Of a stretch of 64,000 nt of DNA, positions 19,292 through 27,273 are shown in pieces. The stretch is from NCBI GenBank assembly GCA_963724765.1, contig CAVRVY010000003.1:640001-704000 (forward strand), read 5' to 3'. Both the position numbers and the translations under genes were made by a program. Source of the DNA: an uncultured delta proteobacterium (GTDB lineage: Bacteria; Desulfobacterota; Binatia; Binatales; Binataceae). The notes below the pieces were generated by a model. That model saw nothing but the letters and a program-made list of their open reading frames with translations. It ran no database searches and was not told the DNA's origin. The first letter of the stretch is position 1. Each line of letters starts with the position of its first letter.

Positions 19292-20341
19292 TCAGACCTT
19301 GAACCTCACGTGGATGATATCGCCGTCGCGAATCACGTATTCCCTGCCCTCGAGCCGGAGCTTGCCCGCTTCGCGCACCTTGGCGTCCGAGCGCAGCGCG
19401 GCGAAATCTTCATAGCTCACGATCTCGGCGCGGATGAAGCCGCGGGCGATGTCGCTGTGGATACGGGCCGCCGCTTCGAGCGCGGAGGCGCCACGCGCGA
19501 GCGGCCAGGCGTGCGCCTCGGGCTCGCCCGCGGTGTAGAAAGTGATAAGGCCAAGCGCGCCATAGAGCGCAGTGACGAGACGATCGCGGGCCGGCGCGCT
19601 GAGCCCCGACGCGCTCAGCAGTTCGCGTTGGCCCTCGGCGTCGAGCTCCCACAATTCGGCCTCGAACGCCGCGGCGAGCCCGAACAATTCCATTCCATGC
19701 GCCGCGGCGGCCTCGACCGAGCTTCGGGCGGGCGCGGCGCCCGCGCGCTCGACGTCACAGTTGACCACCACTAGCGCGGGCTTGCGCGAGAGCAGCCCGA
19801 AGCTCGCAAACACGGTGAGCTCCTGCGCGGTCATTTCGAGCGAGCGCAACGGCTTGCCCTCCTCCAGCCACTCGACGCAGCGCTTTAGCGTGGCGCGCTC
19901 GAACTCGGAGGCCGGGTTGCGCTCCTTGGTCAGGCGCTCCAGGCGCCGCTCGCCCTGGTCGAGGTCGGCAAACACCAACTCGGCCTCGATCGCGGCGAGC
20001 GCGGCGGGCAACGTGGCCTGATTGCCGGGAAATTCTGGTATCACGATCAGCAGCGCGTCGAGGTCGCGGATGAGCGGGAGCAGGCTCGGGTCGAGCGCGG
20101 CGCCCTCTTTCTGCTCCTTGGGGTTGGGCGCGAAATCGAGCACGGTGAGCTCGACCTCGACCCGCTTTTTGGAGCCGTAGGTGCGCTCGAGAAAATCCAG
20201 CCGCTCGTCGGCGACCTTGATCTGGCCGGGGCGCGCGCGGTTACGTCCCTCGCTCTGCCCGGCGAGCGGGGCCAGCCCGGTGAGCGCGTGGAAAACGGTC
20301 GATTTGCCCACGCCGCGTGCGCCAATAATTCCAGTCTTCAA
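19292..20341 (-). CDS. YchF-like P-loop NTPase (DUF933/TGS C-terminus)
   Basis: GARGVGKST; IHSDIARGFIRAE; LRLEGREYVIRDGD. Confidence 0.85.
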   Translation of the reverse strand: MKTGIIGARGVGKSTVFHALTGLAPLAGQSEGRNRARPGQIKVADERLDFLERTYGSKKRVEVELTVLDFAPNPKEQKEGAALDPSLLPLIRDLDALLIVIPEFPGNQATLPAALAAIEAELVFADLDQGERRLERLTKERNPASEFERATLKRCVEWLEEGKPLRSLEMTAQELTVFASFGLLSRKPALVVVNCDVERAGAAPARSSVEAAAAHGMELFGLAAAFEAELWELDAEGQRELLSASGLSAPARDRLVTALYGALGLITFYTAGEPEAHAWPLARGASALEAAARIHSDIARGFIRAEIVSYEDFAALRSDAKVREAGKLRLEGREYVIRDGDIIHVRFKV

Positions 20342-20525
20342 AAAAGAGCACTCCTGATCCTCCAAAGACTTACATATACGCACGCGCGGCGAAAGCGAGT
20401 TTTACCCGCCATCCGGGCGGACAATCCGCGGCAGGGAGCGGTCGCGCCCGTTGACAAAACTCCGAAATGATTTTGGAAGACTGCGAAAGAACAACGATTT
20501 CAGGGAAGTCGAGCGCCAGCACGGA

Positions 20526-20749
20526 GCAAGCCGGAAGAATTTCGCGAACCCACCACTACTTGAACGACCTGCGCGGTCGCGCGAATTCGGGCCGCCGCTT
20601 CGTCACGCGGTCTGGGCGCAAGCGGGGCACGTCCACCACCTGAGAATCGCGGCCGAGGCCGAGACAAAGTGCGACTCGACGAGTGAACCCTGGGAAGTCT
20701 TTAACCAGGGCGGGCGGTGGGTTAGTCTCGTAGCCGTCTTTCCGGCTGC
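20526..20749 (+). ncRNA. Candidate 6S-like rod-shaped RNA (strand uncertain)
   Basis: Nested pairings agccggaa/ttccggct, aacccacc/ggtgggtt, gtcgcgc/gtgcgac and ccgctt/aagcgg; central bubble with a ccctgg/ccaggg hairpin; TTGACA at 20451. Confidence 0.45.
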
Positions 20750-20754
20750 ATGGC

Positions 20755-20830
20755 GCCACCCTAGCTCAGTTGGTAGAGCAGCTGATTCGTAATCAGCAGG
20801 TCGTCGGTTCGAATCCGACGGGTGGCTCCA
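20755..20830 (+). tRNA. tRNA-Thr(CGT)
   Basis: 76-nt cloverleaf: GCCACCC/GGGTGGC acceptor stem, anticodon loop TTCGTAA, GGTTCGAATCC, encoded CCA. Confidence 0.97.
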
Positions 20831-21215
20831 AAAAATCCAGCAAACATAAGGCTTTGAAGATTCATTTTAGTGGCCATTCCGTCGATCTGTTGCGGATTGT
20901 CCGAAAAATGTCCGAGTTTGTCAAGTTCCATTCGAAGAGGTTGCGTCGCGCGCTTGCGTTTAACGCGTGCTCTATTGGATCGTTTGCATGGACGTGCGAT
21001 CGTTGCAGGTCGATAACGATATGGAGTTCCCGGGCGTCACCTGCGCGCTGGCTGTTGCGGCATTCGGGCGCCAGCATTCAGGCGCTAAATTTCTTGGCAA
21101 ACTGTCGCCCTTTTCATTCTATAACTCCGAGACTGTCATCAACGAATTACGTCATCCGATTAATGATCTTCCTACCGTGAGTAGAGCCTGTGTAACCCGC
21201 CCGAACTAATCGCGT

Positions 21216-21371
21216 TCAACGGAAATCCAGTGTGAGCGTTTCGTTGACTCTGACGGGCGCGAAATGGCCCTTGGCGCTCTCGTATTTGAGCCCGAATATG
21301 TGCGCGAAAAACTTTGCCGACGCCTCCTTGTCGTGCGCCGGTACGACCGTGTGGTTCAACGCAATGGTGAT
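21216..21371 (-). pseudogene. Truncated VOC-family gene
   Basis: ITIALNHTVVPAHDKEASAKFFAHIFGL...LDFR*. Confidence 0.7.
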
Positions 21372-21919
21372 GACTCACCTCCATCGACGAGTTGAAAGTC
21401 ATTCCTCTGCTTCAGCAGGTGATCGTCACTAAGCCGCAAGTTCCCGTCGTGGGTGTGGCTACGGAACATAAGATCGGTTGATCTTCGTCAGACACAAGCT
21501 ATCCGTCTCCGATTTGGCGGCGGCATGATCTCCGCCGATCGCGGGGCGCGGGATAGACCCGCGTCGGACCCACCTTCATCTCGACGTCGGGCGGCATCTT
21601 CCAGAGTACCTGCCTTCGAACAGCGCGATCAAACCGCAGGACATGAGTTGGAGCGGAGCCGGGAATGCCTGGCGATCTAGGTGGACGCATCACTGACCGA
21701 CGCGTCGGTAACCAGAGTCTGGACGGCGATGCTTGCGTTTCGCCGCGTCGCCAACACCGAACGTTGCGTTCGCCAACAACAGGAATCGGCACCGAATTCC
21801 TCGCGCACAGAGAGAAAATCGAAGTGACGCGGCATAGTTCGACATGTGGAGGTCAACCCAGCCGTCTCGCGCGGATAGAACGGGCGGGCGATCTTGGCGC
21901 GCGGATACGTTGACAACGC

Positions 21920-22462
21920 CTATCCACGCTCGACACTGGCTAATGATGGACCATTGTAGTGATAGTCTTGGCGACACGCCTGCATCAGCGCGCGCATATC
22001 TTGCCGGAGTTCCTCGAGCGTCGGCCGCCCAACAAACCACCAACCCTCATAGATCGCGTGGATCGTCAGGTCAGGAGCCAGGGAAAAGGTATAGGGAAGG
22101 GCGACCAGGCCGTATCTGAAATCCGGTGGGGTCACTTCCACGATATCGAGTTGCCGGATGGCCCGACGCTCGTGGTCACTGAGAAACGTATACGTCGCAG
22201 CCAGTCCGGCGCGGAAGGCCGCGCTCACTTCTGGCGGGTCGGTGCTGACGACGGCCAGCTTACAGTAGTTGACCTGCAAGTCCTCTTGTAATTCGACGAA
22301 GCGCCGCAACTGCAGCGCGCATTTCGGTCACCAATAGCCACGGTAGAAGCTCAGGATCAGCGGAAAGCCACTCGCCAGTTCAGACAGCGTGATCAGTTGC
22401 TGCCGATGATCGGGTACCGTCAAGTCCGGGAATCGTTTGCCCACAGCGAGATCGGAATGCAT
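21920..22462 (-). CDS. Putative selenoprotein AhpC/TSA-like redoxin (UxxC)
   Basis: RBS AAAGGAG; MHSDLAVGKRFPDLTVPD...FYRGYW-TGA-PKC continues in frame into ORF 21920..22309; TGA (22328-22330) sits at the first Cys of the CxxC. Confidence 0.85.
22297..22326 (-). promoter_or_regulatory. Bacterial SECIS-like hairpin
   Basis: CGAA-ATGC-GCGCTGC-AGTT-GCGGCGC-TTCG; the G-containing apical loop starts 16 nt after the UGA. Confidence 0.65.
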
Positions 22463-22514
22463 AGGCATCTCCTTTCATGTCATAGCAACCGTCAATGGCG
22501 GCTGAGCGGTTTTC

Positions 22515-23510
22515 CTAATGTGACCGAAACAACGCCACCAGAAAATAGCGCCGAGCGTCAAACCAGGTACGACGCAGAACGAGATTGGCCCGGTATCCTA
22601 AGTCACGGACTTCGTTCGGAGAATACTTATACGAACTTTCCGTATGAATCGTTTCATCTTTGCGAAACGATATGGCTTGCTCGATCTTGGCGATGGGCAC
22701 GTGCTGAGGCAGCCGGCTGCGGAGGTGCATCTCAATACGGCCCCTCTCAGCGTTGTAGAGGGCCACGTGCTCAAAGGTTTGCGGGTCAAACCGCCCGCCA
22801 AGTTCATAATTAATACGGTGGAGTACATTCTTGTTGAACGCAGCCGTGACGCCTTGGGCGTCGTCATAGGCCGGGACGAGGATCGCGGGCGATTTTTTCA
22901 GGTCGATACCCAGCAGAAAGACGTCCTCAGGTCCCAGAATGGCCGCCATACGCCGGAGGAACTCGACACTTTCTTCAGGCGTGAAGTTCCCCAGACTGGA
23001 CCCGAAAAAGGCCACGGCTTTCTTCTCCAGTTGAAACGCCTGAATGACCTCCGATTCTCCCGCGAAATCGGTATGCATGGCACGAATCTCAATATGGGTA
23101 AATTCCTGCAGGAGTCGGTTGGCCGTGTCCAAGAGGATTTCTCGAGAAATGTCTACCGGACAATAGCGAAACGGTTGCTCCGCCCGTTCATACGCCGTGA
23201 GGAGGTAACGGGTCTTTCTGGCATACCCGGAGCCGAACTCCACCAGCGCCAGGTGACCAATCTCGGCATGTATCTCGGCGGCATAGGTGCTGAGAATCTC
23301 CAATTCTGCCCGGTAGAGATAGTACTCGGGTAAGGCGCAAATCTGCTCGTAGAGTTGAGAGCCGCGCTCGTCATAAAAATACTTCGGCGGCAGCCATTTT
23401 TGTGGGGCGGTTAGGCCAAACGCCACGTCCCGCGCAAAGGCGTGCCGGTGCACCGCTACATCCATGTCATGAAACTGAAATCGCTTGTTGGGAATGGCCT
23501 CGGTCTCCAT
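22515..23510 (-). CDS. egtD: L-histidine N-alpha-methyltransferase
   Basis: LPPKYFYDERGSQL, LPEYY, VEFGSG, AYDDAQGVTAAFNKN and IHTESSYKY. Confidence 0.95.
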   Translation of the reverse strand: METEAIPNKRFQFHDMDVAVHRHAFARDVAFGLTAPQKWLPPKYFYDERGSQLYEQICALPEYYLYRAELEILSTYAAEIHAEIGHLALVEFGSGYARKTRYLLTAYERAEQPFRYCPVDISREILLDTANRLLQEFTHIEIRAMHTDFAGESEVIQAFQLEKKAVAFFGSSLGNFTPEESVEFLRRMAAILGPEDVFLLGIDLKKSPAILVPAYDDAQGVTAAFNKNVLHRINYELGGRFDPQTFEHVALYNAERGRIEMHLRSRLPQHVPIAKIEQAISFRKDETIHTESSYKYSPNEVRDLGYRANLVLRRTWFDARRYFLVALFRSH

Positions 23511-23601
23511 GGCTATCCCTTACCACGATCTCAAACCCATCGTCGTGGTTGACTCGCTTGGACAAATCGTAGGCGCGCTGGCCCACTTTGGGGCGTAGAG
23601 C

Positions 23602-24942
23602 TTACTCTCGGATCGTTCTGGCGAGCCGGATCCCCATGAACTGCCATCGGACATCGGCAGGGAAAAAGTTCCGATAAGTGGGCCGGATATGCGAAATCGA
23701 GGTCGCACACGACCCGCCGCGCAACACAAACTGGTTGGCCATAAATTTGCCGTTATACTCCCCCAACGCGCCTGGGGATGCGGTGTACCCGGGATAGGGG
23801 GAATAGTGACTTTGGGTCCACTCCCAAACGTCTCCAAAAATTTGGACCAGCGGGACAGCGCTGTCGATCTGACTGATGGGGACGGGATGGAAAGCTTGCT
23901 GCTCAACGAAATTACCCCTAATCAGCAGAGGCATCGCCGCAACTTCCCATTCGGCCTCGGTGGGCAAGCGCGCATCGGCCCAACGTGCGTAGGCGTCCGC
24001 TTCGTAATAACTGACATGACACACGGGTTCGGCTTCCCGCACGGATCGCATCCCGGCAAGGGTCATCATCCACCAGGTGCCATCGCGTTGTTCCCAATAC
24101 AGCGGAGCCTGCCACCCTTCGCGCCGGACCGTATCCCAACCCATGGACAGCCATAGCTCCGGCCGTTCATACCCCCCATCGGCCATGAAGGCCAAGTACT
24201 CCCCGTTGGTGACCAGCCGCGACGCCAACTCGAACCGCTCGACAAAGCTCCGATGTCGAGGGAACTCATTATCGAAGGCGAAACTCTGACCCTCGTGGCC
24301 AATCCAGTAGACGCCTTCGAGAAAGCTCACCCATCGGAGTGGGCCCACCGTCGGTACACTTGTGGGGATGTCGGCGGTTACATACGTAGGTCGCAGTGGG
24401 TTGCAGGCGAAGTTGTATTTCACGTCGGTCAAGAGAAGTTCTTGATGCTGTTGTTCATGGTGCAAGCCGAGCTCGACGACCGGAGACCAGCGCTCGAGCG
24501 TCTCGCCATGTAAACCTTCCAAAAAGGCGGTCATATGCTGGTCGACATGGGCTCGATAGCGATAGACCTCCTCAACGGCTGGACGTGAGAGTAGCCCCCG
24601 TTTGGGGCGGCAATGCCGCTCACCAGCCGCCACGTAATAGGAATTGAAGAGATACGCATAGGAGGGATGCGGCGATCTATAGCCCGGAGAAGCCAGGGCC
24701 AGAATAAAGGTTTCGAAAAACCAACTCGTGTGTGCCAGATGCCACTTAGGGGGGCTCACATCCGGCATGCCCTGAATGACGTAATCTTCCGTCATCAAAG
24801 GCTGGCAGAGTCGGTCGGTAAACTGTCGCACCTGATGGTAACGCCTGACAAGGGCCTCGTGGTGGGCAGTCTCAGCGAGACCATAGAGGACAGTTGCGCG
24901 ATGAATATTGTGATTGATGGGCACATTGCTCTCCTCTTCCAC
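23602..24942 (-). CDS. egtB: Ergothioneine sulfoxide synthase (DinB + FGE domains)
   Basis: SPPKWHLAHTSWFFE, FNSYY, HEQQHQE and GEYNGKFM..VLRGGS. Confidence 0.95.
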   Translation of the reverse strand: MEEESNVPINHNIHRATVLYGLAETAHHEALVRRYHQVRQFTDRLCQPLMTEDYVIQGMPDVSPPKWHLAHTSWFFETFILALASPGYRSPHPSYAYLFNSYYVAAGERHCRPKRGLLSRPAVEEVYRYRAHVDQHMTAFLEGLHGETLERWSPVVELGLHHEQQHQELLLTDVKYNFACNPLRPTYVTADIPTSVPTVGPLRWVSFLEGVYWIGHEGQSFAFDNEFPRHRSFVERFELASRLVTNGEYLAFMADGGYERPELWLSMGWDTVRREGWQAPLYWEQRDGTWWMMTLAGMRSVREAEPVCHVSYYEADAYARWADARLPTEAEWEVAAMPLLIRGNFVEQQAFHPVPISQIDSAVPLVQIFGDVWEWTQSHYSPYPGYTASPGALGEYNGKFMANQFVLRGGSCATSISHIRPTYRNFFPADVRWQFMGIRLARTIRE

Positions 24943-24976
24943 TTGTCTTCACCTCGACACCCAGATAGCCGCCTCC

Positions 24977-25633
24977 TCAGCCTCGCGATTCTCGCACGAG
25001 ATCCACCAACTCGCCAAAGCTTTCGATGACGTGGTCCGGTGCGCACTGCAACAGCGCTTCCCGCGTGCCAAAGCCGTAGGTGACGGCACAGGTCTTGGTG
25101 CCGGCTGCCTTCCCTGCCAGGACATCGGCAGGGGTATCGCCGACCATCAGCGCGTGTGGCGGCGCACAGTGCAACACGGCGAGGGCCGCAAGTATGGTGT
25201 CGGGGGCGGGCTTGAGGCGCAGACCAGGGCTACCACCTTGAATGTGCTGGAAGAAGGGAATCAGGGCCAGCCGCCGCAAGACGATCTCCGCTTGCCCTGA
25301 CTCTTTGGTGGTGACGACGCCGAGCGTAAAGGTGGACAAGGCCTGTAAGGTGAGGATAACCCCAGGGTAGGGTCGGGTCAGGCAGGCGTCCTGCCGGGTA
25401 TATGTGCGGCGGTATGCGGTCAGGAAGGCGCTGAGCAGCGGGGGTGACAACATACCCCCGAGCTCGCTGAGCATCTTGGCGAGTGGCTTGCCGATGTGCT
25501 GGGCAATCGCGGTGGCGCTGGGCGGAATCCCACCAACCACAGTCCGCCAGGCGTTCTGAAACGCCACAGCGATGTCGCGCCGGGAATCGACCAGCGTGCC
25601 ATCGAGGTCACACAAGATGGTGGTGATTGTCAT
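24977..25633 (-). CDS. HAD-family phosphatase
   Basis: DLDGTLVDS, KPAPD and MVGDT..D motifs. Confidence 0.9.
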   Translation of the reverse strand: MTITTILCDLDGTLVDSRRDIAVAFQNAWRTVVGGIPPSATAIAQHIGKPLAKMLSELGGMLSPPLLSAFLTAYRRTYTRQDACLTRPYPGVILTLQALSTFTLGVVTTKESGQAEIVLRRLALIPFFQHIQGGSPGLRLKPAPDTILAALAVLHCAPPHALMVGDTPADVLAGKAAGTKTCAVTYGFGTREALLQCAPDHVIESFGELVDLVRESRG

Positions 25634-25956
25634 GATCTTTCCTCGCGCCCAAGCCTCCTCTTTCATGCCCCTATCAAGCCATTACCTCAGGCCATCGCAT
25701 CTCCCGCTGCAGGCTGCGGTAACACCCAAGGCACGACATACGTAGGTAGCTACAAACTCAGCAGAGTCGAGCAATACCAACAATGGCTGCGCACGTCGGT
25801 GGAACATATCTATTCGTTACCATCGCGGCTGATTGGCGAACGGGTTACCGTACGCGATCGGGCGTATAATCCGCTCGCTGGTGCGCAGCCGGCAAGAATA
25901 ATTGTCGCTGATCGGCAAAAAACAATTCATCGCTGTACATTCTAAAATCGGTGCCC

Positions 25957-27273
25957 ATGCGCAACGCCATATTCTATCTCACGTACAATGGGCTCTATAA
26001 CTTCACCAATGGCATCGGCACGCAAACCCAGCTCCTGATCAGCGGCCTCGAAGTACTGCGGGAGATGCTGGTCAGACGGTATGGCCCCATCGACGTGCAT
26101 GTGGTCTGCCCCTCGCCCGATGTGCATACCTGGGGCTATGATCACGCCTTCTTTCTGCGGCAGCAAGAACGTCTGGCGCCACTCGGTGGGCAGGTGCACC
26201 TCATTCCGTACAAGCGGGAACCCACCCAAGATCTCTGGGAAATCCCTTCCTGGAGGGCCCTCTGTCAGAACGTCGCACCGCTGTTGCATACCCAAGCGGC
26301 GGCCTATGAGCGGTCGTTGATCATTTGTGTGGACCAGCCTTGGTTGCAGACGCCTTATGCGCTTGGAATGGCCCAAAGCCTTCCGCGTCAGGTCGATACG
26401 CTCTTGGTGCTCTATAGCACCGCGTTTATCCGGGACTGGGAGACGCCTGATGCGGCAGAGGTTGCCTGGGAACAAGAAGGGCTTGAGGCGTCACAGCCCG
26501 GTTCGCGGGTAGCGCTTGCCGACATTTGCCCGTCGTTTACCTCGCACCTCAAGACGCACTTCCGGCTGTCGGCGGGAAAGTTCGCGCCTTACACTTCGAG
26601 CATCCTCGTGGACGACCCCGACTTTGTCTTGCAGGACGAGACGGTCGTGCGCACAACGCTGCAGGCCTATGGCATCCCCCTCGATGCGGACCTGGTGTTG
26701 GCATTTGGCAGGGCTGCACCCATCAAAGGATTTGAGCGGCTCATTCCCGCCCTTGCGCCGCTGCGTGACCGGGTGCATTTCGTTCTCATCTCGGTACCCT
26801 ACATCAATGACGACTCGCAACAACGGGTGTATGACCAACTGCTGCAACAACACGCCATACGGGCAACCCACATCAAGGTGTTTACGCGTGATTTACCCCG
26901 TTCCCTATGCCAATGGGCTCGGACGAAAATAGTGATGGTCCCGTCCAGACACGAGACCTTCTCCAATATCCCGCTCGAAGTCGCGTTGTGGGCGCGCGAA
27001 AAGGGGCCCGTCATTGTGGCCTCGACAGCCGGTGGGTTCGCTGATCAAATCCAGCCAGGTATCACGGGATTTCTTGTCGATATCTTGTCTTGTCAGCACG
27101 TCACCCAGACGCTGCACCAAGTGCTCGATCTCTCCCCACAGGCCCAGGCCATCATTCGGCATCGGGCGCATCAACGGATTGTCCAGACATATGACTTCAT
27201 ACACAATTTTCCGGCGACCCTCCGTTGGTTTTGGCAGAGGGGGCCTCGGAGACCGGGCCAGCACGTGCGCTGA
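25957..27273 (+). CDS. GT4 (GT-B) glycosyltransferase
   Basis: FGRAAPIKG, PSRHETFSNIPLE and GGFADQI..G.TGFL. Confidence 0.85.
   Translation: MRNAIFYLTYNGLYNFTNGIGTQTQLLISGLEVLREMLVRRYGPIDVHVVCPSPDVHTWGYDHAFFLRQQERLAPLGGQVHLIPYKREPTQDLWEIPSWRALCQNVAPLLHTQAAAYERSLIICVDQPWLQTPYALGMAQSLPRQVDTLLVLYSTAFIRDWETPDAAEVAWEQEGLEASQPGSRVALADICPSFTSHLKTHFRLSAGKFAPYTSSILVDDPDFVLQDETVVRTTLQAYGIPLDADLVLAFGRAAPIKGFERLIPALAPLRDRVHFVLISVPYINDDSQQRVYDQLLQQHAIRATHIKVFTRDLPRSLCQWARTKIVMVPSRHETFSNIPLEVALWAREKGPVIVASTAGGFADQIQPGITGFLVDILSCQHVTQTLHQVLDLSPQAQAIIRHRAHQRIVQTYDFIHNFPATLRWFWQRGPRRPGQHVR

Follow-up and report, generated by a model that had tools for sequence, protein, structure and literature searches.

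Here we describe prxU, a 180-codon gene for a peroxiredoxin-fold protein that is, on comparative sequence evidence, a genuine selenoprotein gene mis-called by gene callers, and that forms the last gene of an operon with the ergothioneine genes egtB and egtD. It lies at 21920..22462 on the minus strand of a 64,000-nucleotide stretch of DNA, hereafter the window, which comprises positions 640,001 to 704,000 of contig CAVRVY010000003.1 in the assembly GCA_963724765.1 of an uncultured delta proteobacterium (family Binataceae). A first-pass annotation, made from the letters of the window alone and giving no strand, had proposed a hidden selenoprotein redoxin at this place, directly downstream of egtB-egtD. 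The kind of protein, a Prx-like (Prx, peroxiredoxin) UxxC selenoprotein, is already known; the tie of such a selenocysteine (Sec, U) redoxin to egtD and to a selenoneine (sen) cluster appears to be unreported. We consider it most likely, with moderate confidence, that PrxU would act as a dedicated redox partner of ergothioneine and, in some hosts, of selenoneine.

With TGA translated as U, the frame yields 180 residues, MHSDLAVGKRFPDL...FYRGYW-U-PKC..., ends at the stop codon 21920-21922, and contains a single TGA, codon 45 (22330-22328, minus strand), exactly where the annotation had read it within W-U-P-K-C. Under translation table 11 the locus leaves only a 129-aa open reading frame (ORF), 21920..22309, the truncated product that had been attributed to gene callers; correspondingly sized forms fill the databases, since the best 120 of 1771 matches in a search of 5.8 billion proteins were all 109-136 aa long, covered 56-72% of the query and represented the part after the stop. 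The upstream ATG at 22462 is preceded, 6 nt ahead, by the ribosome-binding site AAAGGAG (22469..22475, minus strand, read directly from the sequence and already noted as good), and it follows the stop codon of egtD (22515-22517), on the same strand, after a gap of 52 nt, close to the 50 or so first estimated.

The TGA is retained at the aligned site across homologous loci: in 18 of 19 from species-representative genomes and in 80 of 80 from metagenomes, the lone exception (L033, a Solirubrobacterales metagenome-assembled genome, MAG, at 49% identity) carrying TGC. A search of 151 genomes of the class gave 20 matches at 54-99% identity, the window gene included, every one with exactly one TGA. 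No homologue was found at E<=1e-20 in 200 other genomes of the same phylum, a sampling effect in our reading because the class-genome search turned up many. Among distant full-length homologues from a 1.84-billion-protein library (37-55% identity), 21 of the 23 aligned have Cys at position 45, and the Cys homologues carry TGC or TGT at the Sec45 site. The motif originally proposed for the family, FYRGxWCPxC, was right in placing the TGA at a Cys site, whereas its last element was not borne out, the Cys relatives reading C-P-[KR]-[DE] and not CPxC. Selection on the two sides of the TGA is alike purifying, with dN/dS of 0.05-0.22 over codons 1-44 against 0.07-0.14 over codons 46-105 in six of seven pairwise comparisons, dS being saturated in the seventh. 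The genome (5.4 Mb in 4 contigs) also encodes what is needed to read the codon: a tRNA-Sec (70.2 bits, anticodon TCA), SelA (517 bits), SelB (wing domain, 73 bits) and SelD (388 bits), so that the selA/selB/selC/selD set whose presence the first-pass annotation had asked to be checked is complete, and SelD is itself Sec-containing, with one in-frame TGA. That selD gene (G000:C3:1462704-1463630, minus strand, locus L011) adjoins selB and reads KAAG-U-AGKLG, with a hairpin after the TGA. A pseudogene made by nonsense mutation, or the 129-aa truncated protein that gene callers predict, would account for the halt of the table-11 frame at codon 45 and for databases that carry only the 129-aa-type form, but is contradicted by the same TGA in 98 of 99 loci, hairpins kept beside it in close homologues, Cys at the site elsewhere, purifying selection on codons 1-44, a ribosome-binding site ahead of the upstream ATG, a Pfam match that runs across the TGA and an encoded Sec machinery, and is therefore excluded for practical purposes.

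A structure resembling a selenocysteine insertion sequence (SECIS) extends over 22294..22330 on the minus strand. Its lower stem includes the UGA, and its upper, GC-rich hairpin, GCGCUGC-AGUU-GCGGCGC at 22318-22301, is a 7-bp stem of 22318-22312 with 22307-22301 closed by an AGUU loop (22311-22308) that, on folding, begins 16 nt past the UGA, as had been described from the letters. A hairpin with its loop start 16 nt past the UGA was found in every clade, and the layout is similar to that at the genome's own selD. In an alignment of 95 distinct sequences, used for both covariation and codon analysis, each of the two stem registers tested had a covariation score above those of all 500 column shuffles; compensatory pairs were frequent (for instance, 17 sequences have G-C and 32 have U-A in place of C-G, counts that relatedness inflates), and a single stem register fails across clades, the two registers pairing in 70% and 81% of cells. 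All 95 sequences have G as the third base of codon 49, a site where six amino acids occur, and codon 51 likewise ends in G throughout, to be compared with Gln59, where 21 sequences have CAA; these invariant bases point to selection on the RNA. An RNAalifold stem from 17 sequences, pairing the UGA itself, fails by eye in L034-like sequences and was dropped as a consensus. A scan of 20300-22600 against Rfam at E<=10 returned no SECIS family, only one tRNA and two sub-threshold chance matches. We regard a candidate SECIS at prxU as present but not rigorously proven.

The operon is a same-strand run, HAD-egtB-egtD-prxU, on the minus strand. It opens with a gene for a HAD-family phosphatase (24977..25666; PF13419, 3.4e-31), followed by egtB for the sulfoxide synthase (23602..24942; TIGR03440, 577.8 bits, cut-off 360), egtD for the L-histidine N-alpha-methyltransferase (22515..23510; TIGR03438, 362.2 bits, cut-off 290.9; PF10017, 1e-109) and prxU. 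Both EgtB and EgtD exceed the curated NCBI equivalog cut-offs, and against the SenA model EgtB scores 336.9 bits, under its cut-off of 420.

The tie to egtD recurs well beyond the window. The neighbours of prxU were tabulated by tblastn at E<=1e-8 for EgtD, EgtB, the glycosyltransferase (GT) and the HAD protein in all loci, with L052 dropped as the same contig as L027. In one clade, whose redoxins share at least 70% identity with that of the window, EgtD is found no more than 500 nt away in 16 of the 17 genome loci, the sole miss being a 2.6-kb contig (L032), and in 65 of 80 metagenome loci, where one flank is shorter than 1200 nt in 10 of the 15 misses. The linked loci fall into three arrangements. 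In the first (a; 47 loci including the window), egtD is followed by a codirectional prxU after a gap of 36-138 nt, and its product is 69-96% identical to that of the window; of the other 46 loci of this type, 32 have a HAD homologue (74-93% identity) adjoining egtB, and the remaining 14 have less than 2900 nt on the egtB side. In the second (b; 23 loci), prxU and egtD are convergent, EgtD is 55-67% identical to the window's, and tblastn of the loci gave an EgtB match in none of the 23. In the third (c; 12 loci), egtD is again followed by a codirectional prxU, and EgtD shares only 32-41% identity with its counterpart in the window while the redoxin stays at 72-77%; a divergent EgtB-like gene (26-30% identical) lies upstream in five of these loci, and the one that was scored falls below every curated cut-off. 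EgtD passes the TIGR03438 cut-off in three of three scored loci of this last type and in six of six over all arrangements. A further context is found in Candidatus Entotheonella sp. TSY1 (L030:695-5423), where senB (TIGR04348, 376 bits, cut-off 300) and senA (NF041186, 518 bits, cut-off 420) stand divergent from a run GT2-egtD-prxU; this locus is a selenoneine cluster containing the Sec redoxin. The linkage originally claimed was to the pair egtB-egtD: what recurs is the egtD half of it, in three arrangements, whereas egtB is matched nowhere in arrangement b, is replaced by senA/senB at one locus, and the whole association belongs to one clade. Neither of the outcomes that the annotation had named as refuting was seen: close homologues retain the TGA together with a hairpin, and the egt tie is found again in many loci.

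In a quick maximum-likelihood tree (SH-aLRT support only), arrangements a and b each form one well-supported subclade, and the 88 rows of the linked clade (support 94) have as their sister group a Sec clade of 19 rows without the linkage. EgtD is present in 2 of 17 other genomes of the window's own family, and a high-identity redoxin was met only in a same-genus genome, again beside egtD, which fits transfer of the two as a unit. The gene that diverges from the operon in the window encodes a GT4-type glycosyltransferase of 440 aa (25951..27273, plus strand; PF00534, 3.4e-09); a homologue of it (59-69% identity; 61% in L110) comes after egtD in 10 of the 23 arrangement-b loci and occurs in many arrangement-a loci as well. 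Its N-terminal 230 residues have no family match, and BLAST gave no similarity to SenB. Downstream of two arrangement-c clusters (L114:5345-6838 and L135:5454-6947, both minus strand) we observed a fused gene for an OpuAC substrate-binding domain and permease, of the betaine ABC type; the families were scored in L114, and the ORF in L135 has the same length and place.

As a protein, PrxU falls into the AhpC-TSA family of Pfam (PF00578), whose match runs across the TGA from residue 7 to residue 135 and scores 75.8 bits (gathering score 26; E 3.7e-21). An AlphaFold2 model built on a 24-row alignment has a mean pLDDT of 89.8 and sets residue 45 immediately ahead of a helix, 46-64; its top match in the Protein Data Bank is Bcp4 (3hjp; TMq 0.79, root-mean-square deviation 2.4 over 157 columns), followed by Prx6, AhpC and ResA. 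On this model the centre would be Sec45-Pro-Lys-Cys48, where the first long helix has its N-terminus. The pattern U-[PGA]-K-C holds at all 117 TGA sites found.

Several relatives were seen beside the family proper. In two genomes of the class there is a paralogue with the motif FYRGPW*PK*QVQL, with stops at both 45 and 48 (L054:6004-6522, plus strand; L055:6010-6498, minus strand); the matched stretches hold two TGA and one TAA in the former and three TGA in the latter, and these paralogues would be UxxU proteins of a diselenide type. Many genomes of the class have a second AhpC/TSA-like gene with one in-frame TGA, 28-35% identical to prxU over about 100-145 residues (for example G247:C11:112563-112871), which is probably another Prx-like selenoprotein. 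Three of the Cys homologues (P0124, P0128 and P0143; 280-300 aa) have a common C-terminal extension that is cold-shock-like, by eye only.

What such a redoxin might do beside egtD is suggested by the chemistry of the pathway. EgtE releases ergothioneine sulfenic acid, which is converted to ergothioneine alone if dithiothreitol is supplied and undergoes disproportionation to the sulfinic acid if it is not, and as in vivo reductant the authors suggest unspecified cellular thiols (PMC4493562, available text). The reaction of SenA is likewise described, in the accessible part of the preprint, as running through a selenoxide and a selenenic acid, the latter of which has to be reduced or to disproportionate (bioRxiv 10.1101/2022.04.13.486033). 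In mammals, the reduction of ergothioneine disulfide by thioredoxin reductase (TrxR) is selenium dependent, according to the accessible portion of PMC8868364. A reductase at this place is plausible because the EgtE and SenA routes both yield sulfenic or selenenic acids that need reduction. In a search of the window's own genome for an EgtE equivalog, the top match scored 55.9 bits, where the cut-off is 400.

We therefore favour, as the most likely role and with a confidence that is moderate at best, that PrxU would be a Sec45 redoxin, encoded by the last gene of the operon, dedicated as redox partner to the hercynine-derived 2-thio- and 2-seleno-imidazole betaines, that is ergothioneine and, in some hosts, selenoneine. 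In the mechanism that we envisage, the Sec45 selenolate would attack the oxidised form, which may be the sulfenic or selenenic acid set free at the end of biosynthesis or else the disulfide that arises from oxidative use; Cys48 would then resolve the Se-S(e) adduct and free the reduced thione or selone, and the intramolecular selenenylsulfide left behind might be re-reduced by a cellular thiol system of the thioredoxin (Trx) or glutaredoxin/glutathione (Grx/GSH) type. More tentatively, and as a bolder version of this role that we would put well below it, prxU may encode a reductase of its own for the final stage of ergothioneine and of selenoneine synthesis alike (2-sulfenic or 2-selenenic acid to thione or selone), and thus the enzyme missing from a step that has until now been credited to cellular thiols of no specified kind (PMC4493562; bioRxiv 10.1101/2022.04.13.486033), perhaps with the GT4 and HAD genes as parts of a five-gene module for a further hercynine-derived, possibly sugar-linked thiol.

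The main rival, which we hold to be rather unlikely, is a Sec peroxidase, the second possibility raised in the first-pass annotation, in which H2O2 or organic hydroperoxides would oxidise Sec45 to a selenenic acid, Cys48 would resolve it, ergothioneine or a Trx/Grx system would recycle the enzyme, and egtD would be its mate through one oxidative-stress regulon. The peroxiredoxin fold speaks for it, with the top matches BCP/PrxQ, Prx6 and AhpC, as do the Pfam AhpC-TSA match and the fact that glutathione-peroxidase-type Sec enzymes are peroxidases. So, at first sight, does the alignment by HMMER to the BCP structures 2ywn and 2cx3, in which Cys48 takes the position of the peroxidatic Cys. The same alignments, however, place U45 at the catalytic Thr, R41 at the Pro and P123 at the Arg, so that of the catalytic PxxxTxxC motif and the conserved Arg only the Cys position (C48) is kept: PrxU has a Prx fold and is not a canonical peroxiredoxin. 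The replacement of all three of these residues favours a selenol/thiol centre of Trx-like type over a canonical peroxidatic Cys. In the Cys relatives, moreover, the position aligned with the peroxidatic Cys is D or E in 23 of 23, and the conserved nucleophile of the family is therefore position 45, in a site of Trx type. A peroxidase would also leave unexplained an adjacency that is specific to egtD and lasts through three arrangements and a sen cluster.

Several results nonetheless weigh against the dedicated role that we favour. At the level of the RNA, the stability of the hairpin compared with synonymous recodings is modest (mean z -1.07, with p<=0.05 in 20% of sequences), in a test whose codon table came from the same segments and which is conservative on that account. 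Within the linked clade, five members with adequate flanks have no egtD (L096, L127, L137, L138 and L139), and outside it the tie was not seen at all. For the Sec orthologues at 54-62% identity, 19 loci of which 18 come from the window's class and one from a Chloroflexota MAG, no EgtD match was obtained nearby, as judged from flanks of 5-6 kb on each side except for 1.6-2.0 kb upstream in L037 and L047, and linkage was found in none of seven Cys-form and none of two UxxU-form copies, mostly with 5-6 kb on each side; the egtD tie is thus confined to one clade of the Sec family. The neighbours of the unlinked Sec clade vary and include an NMT1-type binding protein, an enolase-superfamily enzyme and, downstream, a glutaredoxin. 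EgtD is widespread in the class regardless, in 112 of 151 genomes. Among 251 genomes from the phylum of a Cys-form host, the redoxin family is present in 17 and EgtD in 70 (including the unpublished genomes G497 and G431), with both in 10 of the 17; this gives an odds ratio of 4.1 (Fisher p 0.009) on genomes whose kin are non-independent and whose completeness is not known. The independent linkage events are also few, about three arrangements plus the sen context and not some 80, because each arrangement is fixed in one subclade. Finally, the genes could lie together because two antioxidant functions are regulated jointly and not because they have a substrate in common. The few events are still informative because the EgtD partner diverges to 32-41% while the redoxin keeps 72-77% identity, and because the adjacency outlasts inversion.

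As a separate observation, the glutaredoxin gene of the unlinked clade (scored in L031:5759-6163, plus strand) is located 0.8-1.0 kb past the start of the redoxin gene, ORFs in L034 and L042 cluster with it by BLAST, and its product is a possible regenerating partner in that clade.

These limits are what a third explanation draws on, in which PrxU would be a thiol-disulfide oxidoreductase of general use, not tied to ergothioneine in particular, and the egtD adjacency would be gene order inherited in a few mobile clusters. Unrelated and variable neighbours around the distant Sec orthologues and the Cys forms are as it would have them, as are the 7 of 17 family-bearing genomes of another phylum that have no EgtD match, and arrangement types that track subclades. 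Inherited order sits badly, on the other side, with an adjacency that has outlasted a change from codirectional to convergent genes and a swap to an EgtD lineage of 32-41% identity beside a redoxin still at 72-77%, that appears again beside senA/senB, and that is repeated in the same-genus genome although EgtD is otherwise scarce in the family, a pattern that fits transfer as a unit. We judge this explanation unlikely.

A sulfoxide reductase acting one step earlier, turning hercynyl-cysteine sulfoxide into the thioether so that the C-S lyase then needs no reductant, is in our estimate very improbable. EgtE does accept the thioether as well, and a reductant is then unneeded (PMC4493562, in its available text), and Sec-containing methionine sulfoxide reductases (Msr) exist, as the accessible part of PMC13188914 records. 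PrxU, however, has no relation to the Msr family in sequence or in fold, its top folds being Prx and ResA, and prxU sits in a sen cluster too, although selenoxide reduction in the sen pathway leads to an off-pathway selenoether according to the accessible part of the preprint (bioRxiv 10.1101/2022.04.13.486033).

A hint of expression comes from contigs of soil RNA libraries, four libraries of four studies, which match the locus at 90-99% likeness. In three of the four, the contigs bridge the 3' end of egtD, the gap and prxU beyond the TGA (22165-22574, 22189-22539 and 22115-22579); as evidence for the proposed role they prove neither transcription, nor a single transcript, nor Sec insertion. 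A scan of 21300-26100 for promoters and terminators gave nothing beyond shuffle expectation. On the downstream side of prxU, a tRNA-Thr gene (CGT; 20755-20830, plus strand) is followed by about 1.1 kb (20831-21919), between ychF and prxU, in which we saw no convincing ORF; this interval is conserved only in a near-identical contig (L094), and no additional operon gene was seen in it.

The current annotation leaves the operon context of prxU invisible because gene callers truncate the family, the best 120 database matches being all 109-136 aa long against 180 aa for the full protein. In a literature search that covered subscription journals thinly and had survey supplements and BSepDB outside its scope, we found no paper tying a selenoprotein or redoxin to egtD. 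The word ergothioneine has no occurrence in a 2026 review of selenoproteomes (PMC13188914), and the accessible portions of that review and of PMC2398784 make no mention of an egtD link for the Prx-like family. With egtD as its neighbour in some 80 loci, which span several phyla and include many of soil bacteria, the Sec redoxin is a concrete candidate for the reduction of the sulfenic or selenenic acid or for the recycling of the oxidised antioxidant. For ergothioneine in bacteria, biosynthetic enzymes and a transporter have been described, and to our knowledge no dedicated redox enzyme. In engineered ergothioneine producers, prxU could raise yields.

Among known systems, PrxU matches, as far as sequence features can tell, the predicted family of Prx-like thiol:disulfide oxidoreductases (PF00578; UxxC/UxxU), listed among the predicted prokaryotic selenoprotein families in the accessible text of PMC2398784 and PMC13188914. 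It is like these proteins ('Prx-like 1' of the ocean metagenome surveys) in its PF00578 domain, in having Sec first in UxxC, in its Cys homologues and in its UxxU relatives, a likeness drawn from published descriptions of the family; it differs in that its Cys relatives are of the single-Cys form C-P-[KR]-[DE] and not CxxC. With BCP/PrxQ (3hjp, 2cx3, 2ywn) the fold is common (TMq 0.68-0.79, Foldseek E down to 1e-12) and the sequence similarity weak (E 1e-07), PrxU being only 16-21% identical and having Sec at their Thr position and Cys48 at their peroxidatic Cys. The SelL-related family NF040769, also of Prx-like fold and with a selenium redox motif, is the top NCBIfam match of PrxU, which at 34.8 bits against a cut-off of 120 is not a member. 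The mammalian selenoprotein TrxR, for which the sulfenic acid has been raised as a possibly better substrate in the accessible portion of PMC8868364, offers a precedent in function only. It is a flavoenzyme unrelated to PrxU, has its Cys-Sec pair at the C-terminus, is not bacterial, and has no genetic link to biosynthesis. We know of no comparable dedicated redoxin for ergothioneine; the nearest parallels in role are mycoredoxin and bacilliredoxin, small Trx-fold proteins that each serve one low-molecular-weight thiol cofactor and that differ from PrxU in being Cys proteins of other subfamilies.

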